The notes beneath the pieces were generated by a model, which saw nothing but the letters and a program-made list of their open reading frames with translations, did no database searches and was not told the origin of the DNA. The position numbers were made by a program, and so were the translations under genes. A stretch of 64,000 bases of DNA from an uncultured Nitrososphaeraceae archaeon (GTDB lineage Archaea; Thermoproteota; Nitrososphaeria; Nitrososphaerales; Nitrososphaeraceae): contig CAVXZB010000048.1 of NCBI GenBank assembly GCA_963765895.1, positions 99,474 through 163,473 on the forward strand, read 5' to 3'. This document shows positions 1-47,668 of the stretch, one piece after another (within the stretch, counting starts at the first letter, position 1; each line of letters starts with the position of its first letter).

Positions 1-343
1 TAACCGATTTGGGCCGATTGCAAACCTACGATCATGTTTTATCTGACGATGAATCTACTGTTTCCATCCACGACAAGTCTACAAGACATTAACTGTTAAG
101 ATAGATGATTTGCATTAATCATTCCAAAAACTGAAAAATGCAGTAATAATCTTCATAAGATTTACAATATTTATACATATATGTAATTTTAATATACAAT
201 GACTGGCTGCATTAACAAAGTGTCTGACATTTTAACACGTTAACTTCTTAACAAAAACAGACTAGATGTGTTAACTTATCATGATACACTTGAGATATAT
301 GAAAGGATCAAATTATAACAAGTAGTAAATAGGCGCTTCTAGT

Positions 344-29966: not shown

Positions 29967-30278
29967 ATGGCAAAAGTAATTGTCGGAAAAACCTCTGACA
30001 TACCTGAAGGAAAAATTACCCATATAACCGCAGGTGGCAAAGAAATACTAGTTGCCAATGTAAATGGAAGCTATTATGCTACAAATAACATTTGTACTCA
30101 TGCAGGAGCTGAACTTCATGATGGTGGAGAGCTTAATGGTAAGGAATTAACATGTCCCTGGCATGGTTCAAAATGGGATGTAACTACAGGTGATCTAATC
30201 TGGTTTCCACAGAAACTTCAGTCGCTCGGATCATATAAGATTACGTTAGAAAATGATACTATTTACGTAGAGGTTTAA
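29967..30278 (+). CDS. Rieske [2Fe-2S] ferredoxin
   Basis: CTH...CPWHGS. Confidence 0.93.
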   Translation: MAKVIVGKTSDIPEGKITHITAGGKEILVANVNGSYYATNNICTHAGAELHDGGELNGKELTCPWHGSKWDVTTGDLIWFPQKLQSLGSYKITLENDTIYVEV

Positions 30279-39460: not shown

Positions 39461-40704
39461 CTAGTCTCTATAGCCGTTCTTGATCTTATATGTTGTAATT
39501 CGAAGTGAGGGTAGTATAAATAAAAGACTGAGTATACCTCCAAGTAACCATGCAATAGTATAACCTATATGTTGAACAACATATGTAAATACAATTGGGA
39601 CCCAAAATGCTCCAAATAATGATAACCCATTAACCCAGCTTATCGCCAAGGTATCATATGATCTTTTTGTTATTGCCCCTGTGTTTTCTTCGTTTCTCAT
39701 TGCCATTCTAGTCTTTCTGTATGATTCTTTGGCTGAGGTATATGCTATAGTAAAAACACCAGCTGAAAAGGCTCCCACCAAAACATTTGATATTCCAATT
39801 ATGTATATTCCTGATGGTGTTGTCGCAATAGCAATCCCTGCTAAACCAGCGGACATTACTAGGCCGCACACAAACAAGAGTTTCTTTACGTTTCTTATAG
39901 TATCGTATATCCTTCCAAAGATAGGTGCTGATACGACACCAGATATTAAACCTAAACCAACAATAAAGCTAGCAGTTGATGAATTTACTTTCAAATAATC
40001 TTCCAAATAAAATACTATGAACGTCAAAGGTAAACCCCATGCTATTTGTGCTCCAAGTAATACTAATCCAAAAATAAATAGGGATTTATTAAATAATACT
40101 TTGCGAATGTCTGACATATTAATTTGGAAACTTTTTCCTTTTGCACTTTGTGGACTTCTCTGATCTTCTCTATCCCAATCCTGCATTTTTGGTAAAAAAG
40201 CAATTAAGAATATGCCGCTAATCAAACCAAAGCCTCCGCTTAACAATAAGCTTTGTCTCCATCCTACTACTTCTGTAAGAATTACCCATCCAAATATCCC
40301 TATGATTCCCCTATTGAATGAGCCGAGTTTAGTGATGCTATTGCGAATCCTTCTGATCCTCTTCCGAAGTATCTTGTAATCAAAGTGACACTTGAACCAA
40401 AAAATAATGCCATGCCAAGGCCAACGATAAACCGTAGTACTTCCATTTGTTGTATTTGCGAAGATAGACCACAAAGTAATGCTGCTGACGAAGCTATTGT
40501 TATTCCATATATTGCAGTCCTCCTCGAACCCTGTACTGCAGCAAGAATTCCACCAGGTACCTGAAATAGACCTATACCTATTAAGAAGCTCGTAGTAAGT
40601 AATCCTAGCAAAGTGACGTCTTGTTTAAAGTCTGAAGCTATATGTGAAAATATAGAAGCTATATTAAACCAATTTATCGCATATATCACTCTAGCAAATA
40701 GCAA
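39461..40704 (-). CDS. MFS transporter (frameshift near 40305)
   Basis: Multiple TM helices, LRFIVGLG, GRIYD; two ORFs join. Confidence 0.88.
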
Positions 40705-41494: not shown

Positions 41495-42057
41495 TCATTT
41501 TCTCAGTCTTCTAGTCCAATCAGCAAGGTTTTGTAGCAGATGCCTCAAGAATTTCTCAGTATTCTCATCCGTTAGCTTACCATTCGCGTCAAATTTATCT
41601 TGTGAGAATGAAAGTATCACCTCTGGCCCGTTTATCGGATACATATTTAGAAATACGAATATCTGTCGTAAATGATACTGTGCTCTAGCACCGCCCAGCA
41701 TACCCACTGAGGCACTCATTATAGCAGCTGGCTTCCCTTCAAATGCATTATCTCCGTAAGGTCTTGAGGCCCAATCAATTGCGTTTTTAATACTCCTGGT
41801 ACTGAATAATTATATTCCGGAGTTGCAATAAGTATGGCATCTGCTTCCCTAATTTTTGATTTGAATTCTCTTACCTTGGTTGGCATATCTTTCTCAATAT
41901 CTTGATTGAATGGAGGAATACCCTCAATTTCAAAAATTTCTAGACTAACACCTTTTGGCAACAGTTCTATGGCAGCACGTAGGAGAGCCTTATTATAAGA
42001 ACCATCTCTTAAGCTTCCTGCAAAACCAAGAATTTTTAATTCATTATTGCTTTCCAA
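41495..42057 (-). CDS. NADPH-dependent FMN reductase (ChrR/SsuE-like; frameshift near 41785)
   Basis: GSLRDGSYN, ATPEYNYSVPGVLK, GGARAQYHLRQ. Confidence 0.92.
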
Positions 42058-42738: not shown

Positions 42739-43113
42739 TTAGGTAATATCTGCACTAATCACTTTTTGCTTATTTTTTTCAGTGTCAGTAGTATATGAAG
42801 ATGCACTAGATTTTCTTGTGTCATGTAATTTATCATAGTTAGGTTCATAACCAGCGCAGCATCCATGTGGTGCAATAACGTCAGAAACCTTTCCCATAAC
42901 ATCTGGACCATCATCTTCTACAAGCATACATTTTCCACCACTCGTATTTATCCAGTATATACAGTTATAACAAAAGTATCCCTCATGCAAATTAGAATCA
43001 GAAAATTTATCAAATTCGATGTATGATGCCTTTAATTTGTTGAACTTTTTAAATTTGATAATATTGTCTACTGCACCAGCAGCCTCTTTAATTTTATTTG
43101 TTATATTTGTCAA
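42739..43113 (-). CDS. HiPIP-like 4-Cys iron-sulfur protein, copy 2
   Basis: KASY...CYNCIYW......CMLV...IAPHGCCAGY; SD-like AGGAGTAGGAGTGAT upstream. Confidence 0.7.
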   Translation of the reverse strand: MTNITNKIKEAAGAVDNIIKFKKFNKLKASYIEFDKFSDSNLHEGYFCYNCIYWINTSGGKCMLVEDDGPDVMGKVSDVIAPHGCCAGYEPNYDKLHDTRKSSASSYTTDTEKNKQKVISADIT

Positions 43114-43145
43114 TCTGAATAATCACTCCTACTCCTTTCATTCTG

Positions 43146-43442
43146 CTAGCGAGTCTCCGCGTTTGGAAACCATAACGTGCACACACCGCTTGGTGCTATG
43201 ACACCAGATTCTTTTTCATTTACATCAGGTCCAGTATCTTTTACTATGGCACAGTGACTATCCTTAATAAAATATATACAGTTATTGCAAAAATATCCAG
43301 CATTCAAATCTGCATTTTTAAAATATTCGTTCTCTAAATATCCTGCAGTAGCCTTTGACAGCTTTGGATATGGTCTGTCAGTAGGTATGTTATTGCCGTT
43401 ATTTTTGGTATCTGTAGTAGTATATGTTATCTGGTCAGACAT
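43146..43442 (-). CDS. HiPIP-like 4-Cys iron-sulfur protein, copy 1
   Basis: KLSKATAGY...CNNCIYF.....CAIV...IAPSGVCTLW. Confidence 0.75.
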   Translation of the reverse strand: MSDQITYTTTDTKNNGNNIPTDRPYPKLSKATAGYLENEYFKNADLNAGYFCNNCIYFIKDSHCAIVKDTGPDVNEKESGVIAPSGVCTLWFPNAETR

Positions 43443-43750
43443 GATCTACTATTTTTTTGGACATTATTATATTAAGAGGTATATGAATTCTGCAATAAGA
43501 ACATCTACCATTTTAGATTTTTCTCTCTAAATATTGCTGTAGACAGTATTGCTATTAAGAGTTGATGGATGGCTCACGGTTCTAAACTTTAGAAAATGCG
43601 TCGGCAATGAAAAGACCTAGACTGCTTTTCATGAGTCATAACATGCCCAGATCAAATTATGAGGTTATAATTCCATCAACTGGCCTTACTTATATTCCAT
43701 AATATCTTCTCATTCTTCACACAAAAATTACTTCAGATTAATCATACCAT

Positions 43751-44688
43751 TCATGCACCATTGAAACTGCTCGCCATTCCCCCTTGATAAGCCGCGGTAA
43801 GTGCGCCTATCGACCCCCATCCCTGAACATCTCCTGCTGCAAAAAGTCCTTTAACATTTGTTTCTTGCCTTTCATCTGTCTTAATATTGCCTTGCTCATC
43901 TAATTCCAAATTCAAGTTCTCAACTAGTCCTTGTATCAACTTAGATGGTTTTACTGGGGGGATCCACCAGAGAGTATCAATCTGAATAGTTTCGCCAGAC
44001 TCAAGTGAGATTGATCCTACTTTGGCATTAGTAAGATTTACTTTTGCGGGAATTCCTTTATAAACAGGAATATCTAGTTTTGATAATTCCTTTTGGTAGG
44101 AAGGCTTTATATCTATGTTTGGAGGTATGAAAACTTTAATTTTAGAAGTCCAGTTTTGTGCCATCTTCGGAAACCAGCTAAGTTCCTTTTTGGAATTCAC
44201 CACAATACCCCAAACACGGTCTCTATTTTCGTAACCGTCACAAAATGGGCATGAAATAATCGAATCTGCCCAGCATTCTATAAATCCAGGGATATCTGGA
44301 TATACATCGCGGCATCCTACCGATAGAACAACTTTCTTTGCTTTAATCGAGGTTTCATTATCGTCTGTAATTACAAATATTCCATCTTCATATTCTTCTT
44401 CTTTGTTGACATCTACTATATTTCTATTGCGGAATTCAACAGAATCATATTTATCAATCTGTTCCCATGCAATTTCACGAATTTTTATTGGTAAAAGTCC
44501 ATCTAAGCCAAGAAAATTATGAATACCATGAGAAGCTGCATTTCTAGGTGATTCTGAATCATCAAAAACTATAGTTTTTTTCTTGTGCGAGAAAAAACTA
44601 GTGCAGCTTGTAAACCTGCAGGTCCACCTCCTACTATAGCAATGTCTATTTGTTCTTGTTCTAAATGACTTTTTCTTTTATTTGTCAT
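43751..44688 (-). CDS. Thioredoxin-reductase-like FAD/NAD(P) oxidoreductase (frameshift in A-run near 44578)
   Basis: IVGGGPAGLQAAL, PRNAASHGIHNFLG, CPFCDGYE, TNVKGLFAAGD. Confidence 0.9.
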
Positions 44689-46632: not shown

Positions 46633-47004
46633 ATGATAGATGACTTGTTATTAGTAGTTGATGATGATTATGATATTGCATTTCTAATTAGGATCTGTAT
46701 TGAAAATATGGGTCTTTCTGTGTCTTCTTTTACCGATCCCTTGTTAGCCTTAGAAGAGTTTAGAAAGAAACCATCAGATTATGAACTTGTAATCTCAGAT
46801 ATTAGGATGCCTAGTATGAATGGCTATGAGTTTGTAAAACAAGTAAAGAAAATCAACCCAAAAGTAAACGTAATCCTTATGACTGCATTTGAAATAGAAG
46901 ACAAGGAGTTTAACAGCATCCTGCCATTAATCAAGATAAATGGTTTTCTTCGAAAGCCATTTTCCATAACAGAGTTAAGTGATATAATAAGGAAAATCAG
47001 ATGA
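46633..47004 (+). CDS. Stand-alone response regulator receiver domain
   Basis: VVDDD, SDIRMP, MTA, KPF. Confidence 0.95.
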   Translation: MIDDLLLVVDDDYDIAFLIRICIENMGLSVSSFTDPLLALEEFRKKPSDYELVISDIRMPSMNGYEFVKQVKKINPKVNVILMTAFEIEDKEFNSILPLIKINGFLRKPFSITELSDIIRKIR

Positions 47005-47095
47005 AATCGGGTTAAAATGATGCTAATATTTATTGCAGGCTACTATTCACAACGGTTATTATAGTTTTTTGTCCAGCATTTATGTAACAGTCAAA

Positions 47096-47668
47096 ATGAC
47101 ACAGGATCCAATAAACTTTCATGTTACTGATGCTTTAAGCCAGATAAACCAAGCAGAATATGGCGCACACCATATCATAATTTACCCAGATTTACTTACA
47201 CTAAGAGAATTGTATTCCAATTACATAAAAAAACAAATTGAGGAGAACAATGAAATGATTCTTATAAATCCATTTTATGAAACTACTGACTCTGTTAGGC
47301 AAATTCTTTCTAAGAACGGCGTAAATGTGTCCAAATATGAAAAAGAAAAAATGCTTGTAATTATTGATTCTCTCAAGGTGTATTTTAGTCAACAACAACC
47401 AAATATACTTTTTGTGAAAAGCCTAGCTAAATATGCCAAACAAATGGGAAAAAGCTGTCTTTCAATTCTGGGTGATCTAGGCGCCTATCCTCACAGATCC
47501 AAGTATGATAATCTTGTCGATTATGAACTGTCTTTGCCGTTAAAGTATGATGTTGATATGAAAGGGTTTTGTCTATACCACCAAAAGGATTTTGACAAAT
47601 TCTCAGTTGAGCAAAAGCAAAAATTAATTAAACATCATGGCAAGGCTCTAAAAATAGAAAGATCCTAA
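47096..47668 (+). CDS. MEDS domain sensory protein
   Basis: GAHHIIIY, LVIIDS, LVDYE..LP, GFCLYH..DF. Confidence 0.85.
   Translation: MTQDPINFHVTDALSQINQAEYGAHHIIIYPDLLTLRELYSNYIKKQIEENNEMILINPFYETTDSVRQILSKNGVNVSKYEKEKMLVIIDSLKVYFSQQQPNILFVKSLAKYAKQMGKSCLSILGDLGAYPHRSKYDNLVDYELSLPLKYDVDMKGFCLYHQKDFDKFSVEQKQKLIKHHGKALKIERS

Follow-up and report, generated by a model that had tools for sequence, protein, structure and literature searches.

High-potential iron-sulfur proteins (HiPIPs) are the textbook periplasmic carriers of bacteria, exported by the twin-arginine translocation (Tat) system. Can the same fold serve inside an archaeal cell? The question is raised by two adjacent genes, here called A and B, on a 64,000-nt stretch of DNA from an uncultured Nitrososphaeraceae archaeon (positions 99,474 to 163,473 of contig CAVXZB010000048.1, assembly GCA_963765895.1); we refer to this whole stretch as the window. 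A first-pass annotation, made from the letters alone, had read the two products as a leaderless, possibly heterodimeric archaeal branch of the HiPIPs. We find that A and B are conserved members of a small protein family of one archaeal order, in which two anciently diverged gene types are kept in tandem, and that the AlphaFold model of A resembles HiPIPs more closely than any other class of known structure. On the strength of this model, A and B are probably HiPIP-fold iron-sulfur (Fe-S) proteins.

A conserved tandem of leaderless four-cysteine genes

Both genes lie on the minus strand. Gene A, the first of the pair (43146..43442), is an open reading frame (ORF) with an ATG start that encodes a leaderless four-cysteine protein of 98 aa. 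Gene B, the second (42739..43113), encodes a 124-aa paralog of A from a TTG start, which lines up with the ATG starts of its orthologs. The two products are identical at 34 of 72 aligned positions (47%; BLASTP, E 4e-21). The 32-nt spacer between the genes (43114..43145) holds AAAGGAGTAGGAGTGAT, that is, two GGAG cores (43135-43132 and 43129-43126) placed 12-18 nt 5′ of the B start codon, the latter core within a Shine-Dalgarno (SD)-like AGGAGTGAT at 43130-43122. This SD-like element is presumably complementary to the 3′ end of archaeal 16S rRNA. The arrangement described in the first-pass annotation—co-oriented paralogs 32 bp apart, with a strong SD before the second—is thus borne out in each of its parts. 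Further upstream, a TATA-like TTAATATAATAA (43464..43475, minus strand) sits 22-33 nt (centre ~28 nt) 5′ of the A start codon, in a genome of ~34% G+C where AT-rich boxes are frequent by chance. A first gene with a leaderless transcript, followed by an SD-led second gene, is a common archaeal pattern; the box before A and the spacer before B would fit a transcript with no or a short leader that continues into an SD-led gene.

A and B are real genes, as is evident from 90 close homologs, 124 cluster representatives and purifying selection. By the Nei-Gojobori method, A has a median dN/dS of 0.13, from 18 ortholog pairs with dS of 0.05-2, and B one of 0.10, from 12 ortholog pairs.

As had been noted before, N-terminal hydropathy and a scan for RR motifs reveal no hydrophobic or twin-arginine leader in A, in B or in 38 orthologs of each. 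The Kyte-Doolittle maximum ahead of the first cysteine (12-residue mean) is -0.23 in A and 0.69 in B. Across the family, a hydrophobic N-terminus (mean of at least 1.6) was seen in 2 of the 91 rows of alignment A2, in 1 of the 38 rows of alignment A3 (an over-extended ORF) and in none of the 38 rows of alignment A4, while a twin-Arg-like motif occurs in one of 91 family rows. Given the absent leader, we rejected a classical Tat-exported HiPIP. Because both proteins are leaderless, they are probably cytoplasmic, which is a reasonable inference from their N-termini.

The cysteines of A (C52, C55, C64 and C88) follow the spacing C-x2-C-x8-C-x23-C, those of B (C48, C51, C62, C85 and C86) the spacing C-x2-C-x10-C-x22-CC. 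Every element of the shared motif that the first-pass annotation quoted can be read in both translations, as KLSKATAGY...CNNCIYF...CAIV...GPDV...IAPSGVCTLW in A and as KFNKLKASY...CYNCIYW...CMLV...GPDV...IAPHGCCAGY in B; the ‘GPDV’ segment amounts to ~11 residues inserted ahead of the fourth cysteine. In a set of 25 homologs picked ahead of any motif filter, C52, C55, C64 and Y35 are invariant and C88 is kept in at least 90%, both exceptions being C-terminally garbled records. In 38 A orthologs, taken by hidden Markov model (HMM) score, all four cysteines, Y35 and W91 are invariant, and in both sets aromatic residues are conserved beside each cysteine. The 38 B orthologs retain all five cysteines, with the HGCC doublet in every one, so the fifth cysteine pointed out earlier in the second copy (part of the C85-C86 doublet) is a constant feature of its type. 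B also ends in a conserved, charged tail, KLHDTR...EKNKxKVxxADx, kept in all B orthologs as KLHDTR...EKNKEKVTTADV. The 91 rows of alignment A2, which served for structure prediction, were chosen by a four-Cys regular expression (121 of 211 fetched proteins fit), and Cys invariance within A2 is circular. Among the 121 motif-bearing sequences, the commonest spacing is that of A, C-x2-C-x8-C-x23-C (82 sequences).

HiPIPs space their cluster ligands within the range C-x2-C-x(8-16)-C-x(12-15)-C. For one member, Iro, the ligands are given as Cys24, Cys27, Cys36 and Cys49, or C-x2-C-x8-C-x12-C (PMC10654088). The first three cysteines of A are spaced exactly as Cys24, Cys27 and Cys36 of Iro; the gap from the third to the fourth is x23 in A and x22 in B, compared with x12 in Iro.

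Predicted fold and sequence-level searches

From alignment A2, AlphaFold2 modelled A with a predicted local distance difference test (pLDDT) score of 82.5 and a predicted TM score (pTM) of 0.70, the block means reaching 82-96 from residue 21 onward. Comparison of this model with 48,161 Protein Data Bank (PDB) representatives by VIA-align returned 11 chains at a Z of at least 2. Ranks 1-7 are all HiPIPs (Z 5.4-3.7; root-mean-square deviation (rmsd) 2.1-3.9 Å over 47-57 residues), led by 1isu_B (Z 5.4; rmsd 2.6 Å over 51 residues) and including 3h31_A (Z 5.3) and PioC (6xyv; Z 5.0, 52 residues aligned at 33% identity). Ranks 8-11 (Z 2.4-2.6) are small subunits of benzylsuccinate synthase (BSS; ranks 8-9), of a glycyl-radical decarboxylase of the 4-hydroxyphenylacetate-decarboxylase type and of methylalkylsuccinate synthase. 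For ranks 8-9, PMC12590467 describes the beta and gamma subunits of BSS as HiPIP-like folds around a [4Fe-4S] cluster. Foldseek, run on the same model against the PDB, likewise placed HiPIPs at ranks 1-10, 12 and 13 (E 0.095-1.6), and a re-examination of 31 Foldseek chains listed 12 entries, all of them HiPIPs. The structural matches span the whole A domain (model residues 27-96). The VIA-align scan, which does not depend on Foldseek, is the more telling of the two. No unrelated fold ranks beside the HiPIP class.

The alignment with the HiPIP of C. vinosum (model 28..96 to chain 12..85) sets C88 on residue 77, a cluster ligand according to the title of entry 1js2. If the terminal segments are ungapped, Y35 would fall on residue 19 and W91 on residue 80 of that protein. 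Tyr19 we take to be the conserved Tyr of HiPIPs. A HiPIP-like fold, as the first-pass annotation had supposed, is supported for A, the member of the pair that was modelled, in that structural comparison of its AlphaFold model returns only HiPIPs and small subunits of glycyl-radical enzymes.

A series of results weighs against this assignment. Three of the five AlphaFold models of A score only 58.6-63.3, and prediction from a 25-row alignment gave an unusable model (pLDDT 38.8). The fold scores are modest (Z of 5.5 at most) and lie in a range, below Z 8, that can mean mere shared arrangement; Foldseek found no PDB match to the model at E ≤ 0.001, the best standing at E 0.095. At the level of primary sequence, no search links the family to known HiPIPs, and the earlier claim that the shared motif is the PF01355 signature finds no support in the Pfam model. 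Scans of A and B with Pfam and NCBIfam found no family at E ≤ 10, the PF01355 model gave no match at E ≤ 10 on A, on B or on the whole genome (14 candidates scored), and in none of 301 genomes of the phylum did it score over its cut-off. Membership of PF01355 takes a gathering score of 22 bits, of which A and B fall short. Sequence searches of the PDB with A (phmmer) and with profiles A1 and A2 reached no HiPIP. What they did return (E 0.75-2.1), namely an uncharacterised protein, LS-24 and an antibody heavy chain, are chance matches. Finally, four cysteines can equally bind Zn or a [2Fe-2S] cluster.

The last point opens the way to an alternative in which A and B are Zn-binding or other non-Fe-S small structural proteins and the HiPIP likeness resides only in the predicted model. 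Four cysteines suit Zn, the family is without a sequence link to HiPIPs, its fold scores are modest, and some of its members are associated with C2H2-like fingers (see below). Yet 11 out of 11 chains at a Z of at least 2 belong to [4Fe-4S] protein classes, the first three cysteines keep the spacing of Iro with conserved aromatics beside each cysteine, and a Rieske ferredoxin gene is tightly linked to the pair in a sister lineage of the family, the D/E lineage described below. We regard a Zn or other non-Fe-S protein as improbable. The more specific idea of a rubredoxin or zinc-ribbon type was rejected, as the second pair of cysteines does not form a CxxC knuckle and chains of these types are missing from those at a Z of at least 2, though absence there is not proof.

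The HiPIP-fold assignment is also touched on by automatic annotation. All 90 close homologs, and the members of ten clusters that were looked up, are called ‘hypothetical protein’ or are unnamed, and none carries a precomputed Pfam domain. In the ESM-Atlas, the two archaeal clusters nearest A (scores 0.94 and 0.93; 77 and 51 members; Nitrososphaerota/Thermoproteota) bear the automatic name ‘putative High potential iron-sulfur proteins family profile domain-containing’, which is a lead rather than a test. Against A, a viral cluster in which 11% of the members carry PF01355 scores 0.88, again as a lead only. With B, the named clusters yielded only leads below 0.9; the viral ones score 0.84-0.86, and in one of these PF01355 is present in 11% of the members. 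Viral contigs scanned with the family pattern gave 3 pattern matches, none of which was confirmed, and the single match from a tblastn search of phage records (E 3) is a chance one. Equally, the family HMM found no credible link to ORFs at sub-threshold PF01355 matches of other archaea, where the best match (E 0.022) covered a 12-residue CxxC stretch.

A separate observation concerns another archaeal family of the phylum (f9), in which 23 of 25 sampled genomes have four-Cys ORFs of 49-77 aa that match PF01355 below its cut-off (E 0.003-0.1). Among them are MTCKDCGLF...GYCRK...KACN and CKDCEYWYG...GPCS...HECDE, one type being found at loci L001, L005 and L008 and another at L002, L003 and L007. 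These ORFs may encode further unrecognised HiPIP-like mini-proteins. The A/B family HMM does not match them.

Paralogs, distribution and gene neighbourhoods

Genome contigs yielded 166 relatives in one scan, and 80 of these were retained. At 48 of the 80 loci, A is followed by B on the same strand, the gap being anything between a few nt and 46 nt, or the ORFs overlapping where the B call is over-extended; several other loci break off just after A. Metagenome contigs, scanned with a divergent subgroup of the family, contributed 435 relatives and a second lineage with a tandem of its own, a D-type gene followed by an E-type gene in 51 of the best 54 loci, mostly at gaps of 0-21 nt. The survey of homologs and synteny that the first-pass annotation had called for therefore shows the tandem to recur well beyond the window.

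A maximum-likelihood tree was built from 71 core sequences over 69 columns, and many of its forks are unresolved. The second-gene types B and E group together as a clade (support 96/99). Support is 100/100 both for B and for D, and C (a solo type, see below) together with D is set apart from A, B and E at 95/95. Since B and E share a clade, the split between first- and second-gene types is older than the divergence of the two lineages, both types having been kept side by side since. Given that such anciently diverged paralog types stay adjacent, we propose that A and B work together. A predicted complex of A (residues 20-98), B and two 4Fe-4S clusters scored 0.01 against a mark of 0.32, a result that counts neither for nor against pairing. 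One metagenome record, P0223, holds D- and E-type domains in series within a single 206-aa ORF, either because the two genes have fused naturally or because a stop codon was lost. No longer fused form was found at 348-2000 aa (search with A2) or at 173-2000 aa (search with A alone), which is weak evidence, as fusions of 187-206 aa do exist (P0145, P0172 and P0223). Long N-terminal extensions of some D-type ORFs (121-226 aa) were not counted as fusions: Pfam matches none of them, and the ORF calls look over-extended.

The host genome contains five copies of the family, made up of the A/B pair, intact solo copies of C-type on contigs C42 and C78, and a split copy on contig C73. A gene for a luciferase-like oxidoreductase (Bac_luciferase E 1e-48) directly follows both the copy on C78 (L014:424-1815; gap of 36 nt) and that on C73 (L017/L018). 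The C-type gene and the luciferase-like gene look like a duplicated two-gene module.

With respect to the host itself, the assembly comprises 4.9 Mb in 88 contigs and is 88% complete, the window lying on contig C48. It encodes an archaeal AmoA (G000:C24:168102-168652), and the nearest public records with the pair are named Nitrososphaeraceae, Nitrososphaera or Nitrosopolaris; on these two grounds, the host is a soil-type ammonia-oxidising archaeon. Profile A2, run over 300 genomes of the class, detected the family in 20 of 39 genomes of the host family (f1), in 0 of 180 of the sister family f2 and in 0 of 81 from thirteen other families. The D/E profile A5, run over 200 genomes of the order, detected it in 19 of 40 genomes of f1, 4 of 13 of f66, 2 of 40 of f51, 0 of 40 of f2 and 0 of the remaining 67. 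The search that finds the AmoA of the host did not find one in five genomes with D/E from f66 and f51, of which two are single-contig. Within the genomes searched, the family is confined to three families of one order, is patchy, and is not tied to ammonia oxidation. The archaeal ammonia-oxidiser setting put forward earlier thus holds for the amoA-bearing host and its Nitrososphaeraceae relatives, but not for the family as a whole, which is also present in sister families without detected amoA.

In the window, the nearest neighbour upstream of A, at 308 nt, is a thioredoxin-reductase-like flavoprotein gene (43751..44688, minus strand; Pyr_redox_2 E 3e-17, with GGGPAG and CPFC motifs), frameshifted at the A7 run 44575-44581. 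An intact 316-aa ortholog, 94% identical, stands upstream of the pair at locus L019, and a different thioredoxin-reductase-like paralog (25-28% identical to that of the window) does so in 4 of 49 other loci. On the other side of the pair, ~680 nt downstream of B, lies a gene for an NADPH-dependent flavin mononucleotide (FMN) reductase (41495..42057, minus strand), divided between two ORFs (FMN_red E 5e-26 and 6e-7). Where its frame breaks, after 41783, one extra base is present in contigs of relatives from three sequencing runs. A major facilitator superfamily (MFS) transporter gene, on the same strand, also lies downstream of the pair. One clade shares TruD and a Cas4-like gene upstream of the pair and, downstream, genes for a helical protein of 162 aa, a winged-helix protein of the HTH_45 kind and a DUF3108-like protein (21-22 of 49 loci). 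On the plus strand of the window, 3 kb from the pair, 46633-47668 encodes a response-regulator receiver protein (123 aa) and, 29 nt on, a MEDS-domain protein (211 aa).

Frame breaks are not limited to the flavoprotein gene with its A7 run. The MFS transporter gene (39461-40704) appears as two overlapping ORFs, amoA is read in three frames, and the family copy G000:C73:1552-1829 is split in two. The host assembly looks indel-prone, with some breaks at homopolymer runs, rather than rich in true pseudogenes.

D/E pairs have a tighter setting. A gene for a soluble Rieske-type [2Fe-2S] ferredoxin (Pfam Rieske E 3e-18 to 4e-19) follows E after 25-61 nt in 30 of the 36 D/E loci that have at least 350 nt downstream, and is itself followed by a universal stress protein (Usp), a Ferritin-like PF12902 protein (18 loci) and KaiC-like ATPases. 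D, E and the Rieske gene form a tight, co-oriented row of three genes for small, putatively Fe-S, proteins, which favours a role as a redox module. In an array from peat and soil metagenomes (L105-L152, e.g. L150:3911-8214), D, E, Rieske ferredoxin, Usp, PF12902 and KaiC-like genes are all co-oriented, with more KaiC-like genes upstream; the PF12902 protein of this array weakly resembles the C-terminal part of VioB. The window, too, has a 103-aa ORF that is 42% identical to the D/E-linked Rieske ferredoxin (29967-30278, plus strand), 13 kb from A/B and on the opposite strand.

The loci of A/B themselves are less favourable to a redox role. A flavoprotein neighbour is found at only 6 of 51 pair loci, no Rieske gene adjoins A/B, the neighbourhood is variable beyond the pair, and presence in only 20 of the 39 sampled host-family genomes argues against a core function.

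Additions to certain paralogs point to another possible use of the domain. Solo C-type paralogs at five loci, as well as P0109 (a 27-member cluster at 90% identity), carry a C-terminal C-x2-C-x12-H-x4-H finger (zf-C2H2 E 6e-4 to 0.04), and a winged-helix-like N-terminus precedes the D-type domain in P0145 (a 198-aa ORF of genome G608; TrmB E 0.0015, MarR_2 E 0.0019) and in P0172. These nucleic-acid-binding fusions speak against a pure carrier role. They also keep alive, as the main rival, the explanation that the family consists of redox-, O2-, NO- or iron-sensing regulators, in which the state of a labile Fe-S cluster controls binding to DNA or to a transcription factor and A and B are stand-alone sensor subunits. 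The HTH_45 winged-helix gene that lies second downstream of the pair at 21 of 49 loci, and the Usp and KaiC-like signalling genes that flank D/E pairs, can be read in the same sense. Every finger and winged-helix match is, however, below Pfam cut-offs, and A and B have no DNA-binding part of their own. The HTH_45 neighbour belongs to the synteny of one clade and may simply have been carried along, the D-E-Rieske genes, tightly arrayed at 30 of 36 loci, resemble an electron-transfer set, and the regulator explanation is without a known operator or regulated target. We consider it unlikely, if still the strongest competitor to a redox module.

A further alternative takes its cue from the lower-ranked structural matches, the small subunits of glycyl-radical enzymes, which are the sole non-HiPIP chains at a Z of at least 2. 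A and B would then be accessory Fe-S subunits of a larger enzyme, akin to the beta and gamma subunits of BSS, and would dock on a catalytic protein encoded at another site, which they stabilise or gate. Like A and B in this view, the subunits of BSS are cytoplasmic, paired and both HiPIP-like (PMC12590467), the charged conserved tail of B could serve as a docking peptide, and the Ferritin-like PF12902 protein belongs to the D/E array at 18 loci. But the Z scores to the glycyl-radical small subunits are low (2.4-2.6), no large enzyme gene is conserved beside A/B, and neither the Pfam-scanned neighbours in the window nor the conserved neighbour clusters of the 49 pair loci include a glycyl-radical enzyme. 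We see in it a slim prospect.

Proposed role and relation to known systems

The explanation that we favour, and think moderately likely as a whole, is that A and B are co-transcribed, leaderless, probably cytoplasmic small proteins of a Nitrososphaerales-specific HiPIP-fold family. Each would most likely bind one cubane [4Fe-4S] cluster, through C52, C55, C64 and C88 in A and through C48, C51, C62 and C86 in B. A conserved aromatic shell (Y35, Y50, F51, Y57, F58 and W91) would cover the cluster of A, with the 11-residue ‘GPDV’ loop placed between the third and fourth ligands. A and B would cooperate, possibly as a heterodimer, in a one-electron redox module, with electrons presumably flowing between soluble cytoplasmic redox proteins—a Rieske-type ferredoxin in the D/E lineage, flavoproteins of the thioredoxin-reductase-like or FMN-reductase kind in the case of A/B. 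In the solo paralogs fused to C2H2-like or winged-helix modules, the domain may also have been recruited as the redox-sensing input of regulators.

Co-transcription, one element of this proposal, can be set beside data from RNA libraries. Six soil metatranscriptome runs contain ~0.4 of the sampled words of a 901-nt stretch around the pair. In X18, the one run with contig coverage of the pair, a 1253-nt contig aligns on 42836-43511 with 12 letters differing, taking in the whole of A and the spacer and reaching 278 nt into B; in run X15, no contig aligned on the pair. The X18 contig across the A/B junction lends weak support to co-expression, with the caveat, itself a point against the proposal, that contigs from RNA libraries prove neither transcription nor one single transcript.

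A bolder version, which we find rather doubtful, would have an ancient, obligately paired (heterodimeric) cytoplasmic HiPIP system in Nitrososphaerales. Type I and type II subunits with one [4Fe-4S] cluster each would act together with the Rieske ferredoxin or the thioredoxin-reductase-like flavoprotein as a high-potential wire or redox switch, and the CC doublet of B would provide a redox-active thiol adjacent to the cluster. Were it true, archaea would gain their first HiPIP system, and the cytoplasm its first pair of stand-alone HiPIP carriers.

What is new here is a leaderless, paired, Nitrososphaerales-specific branch of what is probably the HiPIP fold, for which no curated family exists. 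The first-pass annotation had supposed such a subfamily to be undescribed. In the full-text literature searched, with subscription journals outside its scope, we found no paper on archaeal or cytoplasmic HiPIP-like proteins of this kind, and to that extent the supposition stands; it fails in so far as two ESM-Atlas clusters already bear an automatic, profile-based HiPIP name. The family fills a gap left by Pfam and NCBIfam, its members seen so far being nameless or ‘hypothetical protein’. It is common in soil Thaumarchaeota and present in contigs of soil metatranscriptome libraries, and in ammonia-oxidising archaea cytoplasmic electron routing and the balance of iron versus copper are poorly understood. 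A leaderless, paired archaeal branch would broaden the known uses of the HiPIP fold. Both proteins are small and easy to express, which makes the proposal directly testable.

Three known systems invite comparison. The WhiB-like [4Fe-4S] regulators of Actinobacteria are likewise small cytoplasmic four-Cys proteins that form multi-copy families inside a single lineage, with an unrelated helical fold. They resemble the C2H2- and winged-helix-fused forms of the present family in logic only, no match in sequence or fold having been seen. The beta and gamma subunits of BSS and other X-succinate synthases come closer, being leaderless, cytoplasmic and encoded together as two paralogous, small, HiPIP-like [4Fe-4S] proteins (PMC12590467). 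The model of A matches them at Z 2.4-2.6, less well than it does true HiPIPs, and A and B differ from them in having no adjoining glycyl-radical enzyme or conserved large partner and in belonging to another group of hosts with an aerobic lifestyle. Closest of all are the bacterial HiPIPs (PF01355), among them those of Rhodocyclus tenuis (1ISU) and Rhodothermus marinus (3H31), PioC (6XYV) and Iro, which are the best structural matches of the A model. They, too, are small and have little regular secondary structure, four cysteines (the first three spaced C-x2-C-x8-C in Iro as in A), aromatics after the second and fourth cysteines, and a conserved Tyr in the N-terminal segment, to which Y35 may correspond. 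In contrast to these bacterial proteins, which are exported and single, A and B have neither a Tat or Sec leader nor a PF01355 match, and they place 22-23 residues between the third and fourth cysteines where Iro has 12. They are archaeal and belong to one order, and they come as a tandem of two paralog types, the second of which is marked by its CC doublet and its charged tail.

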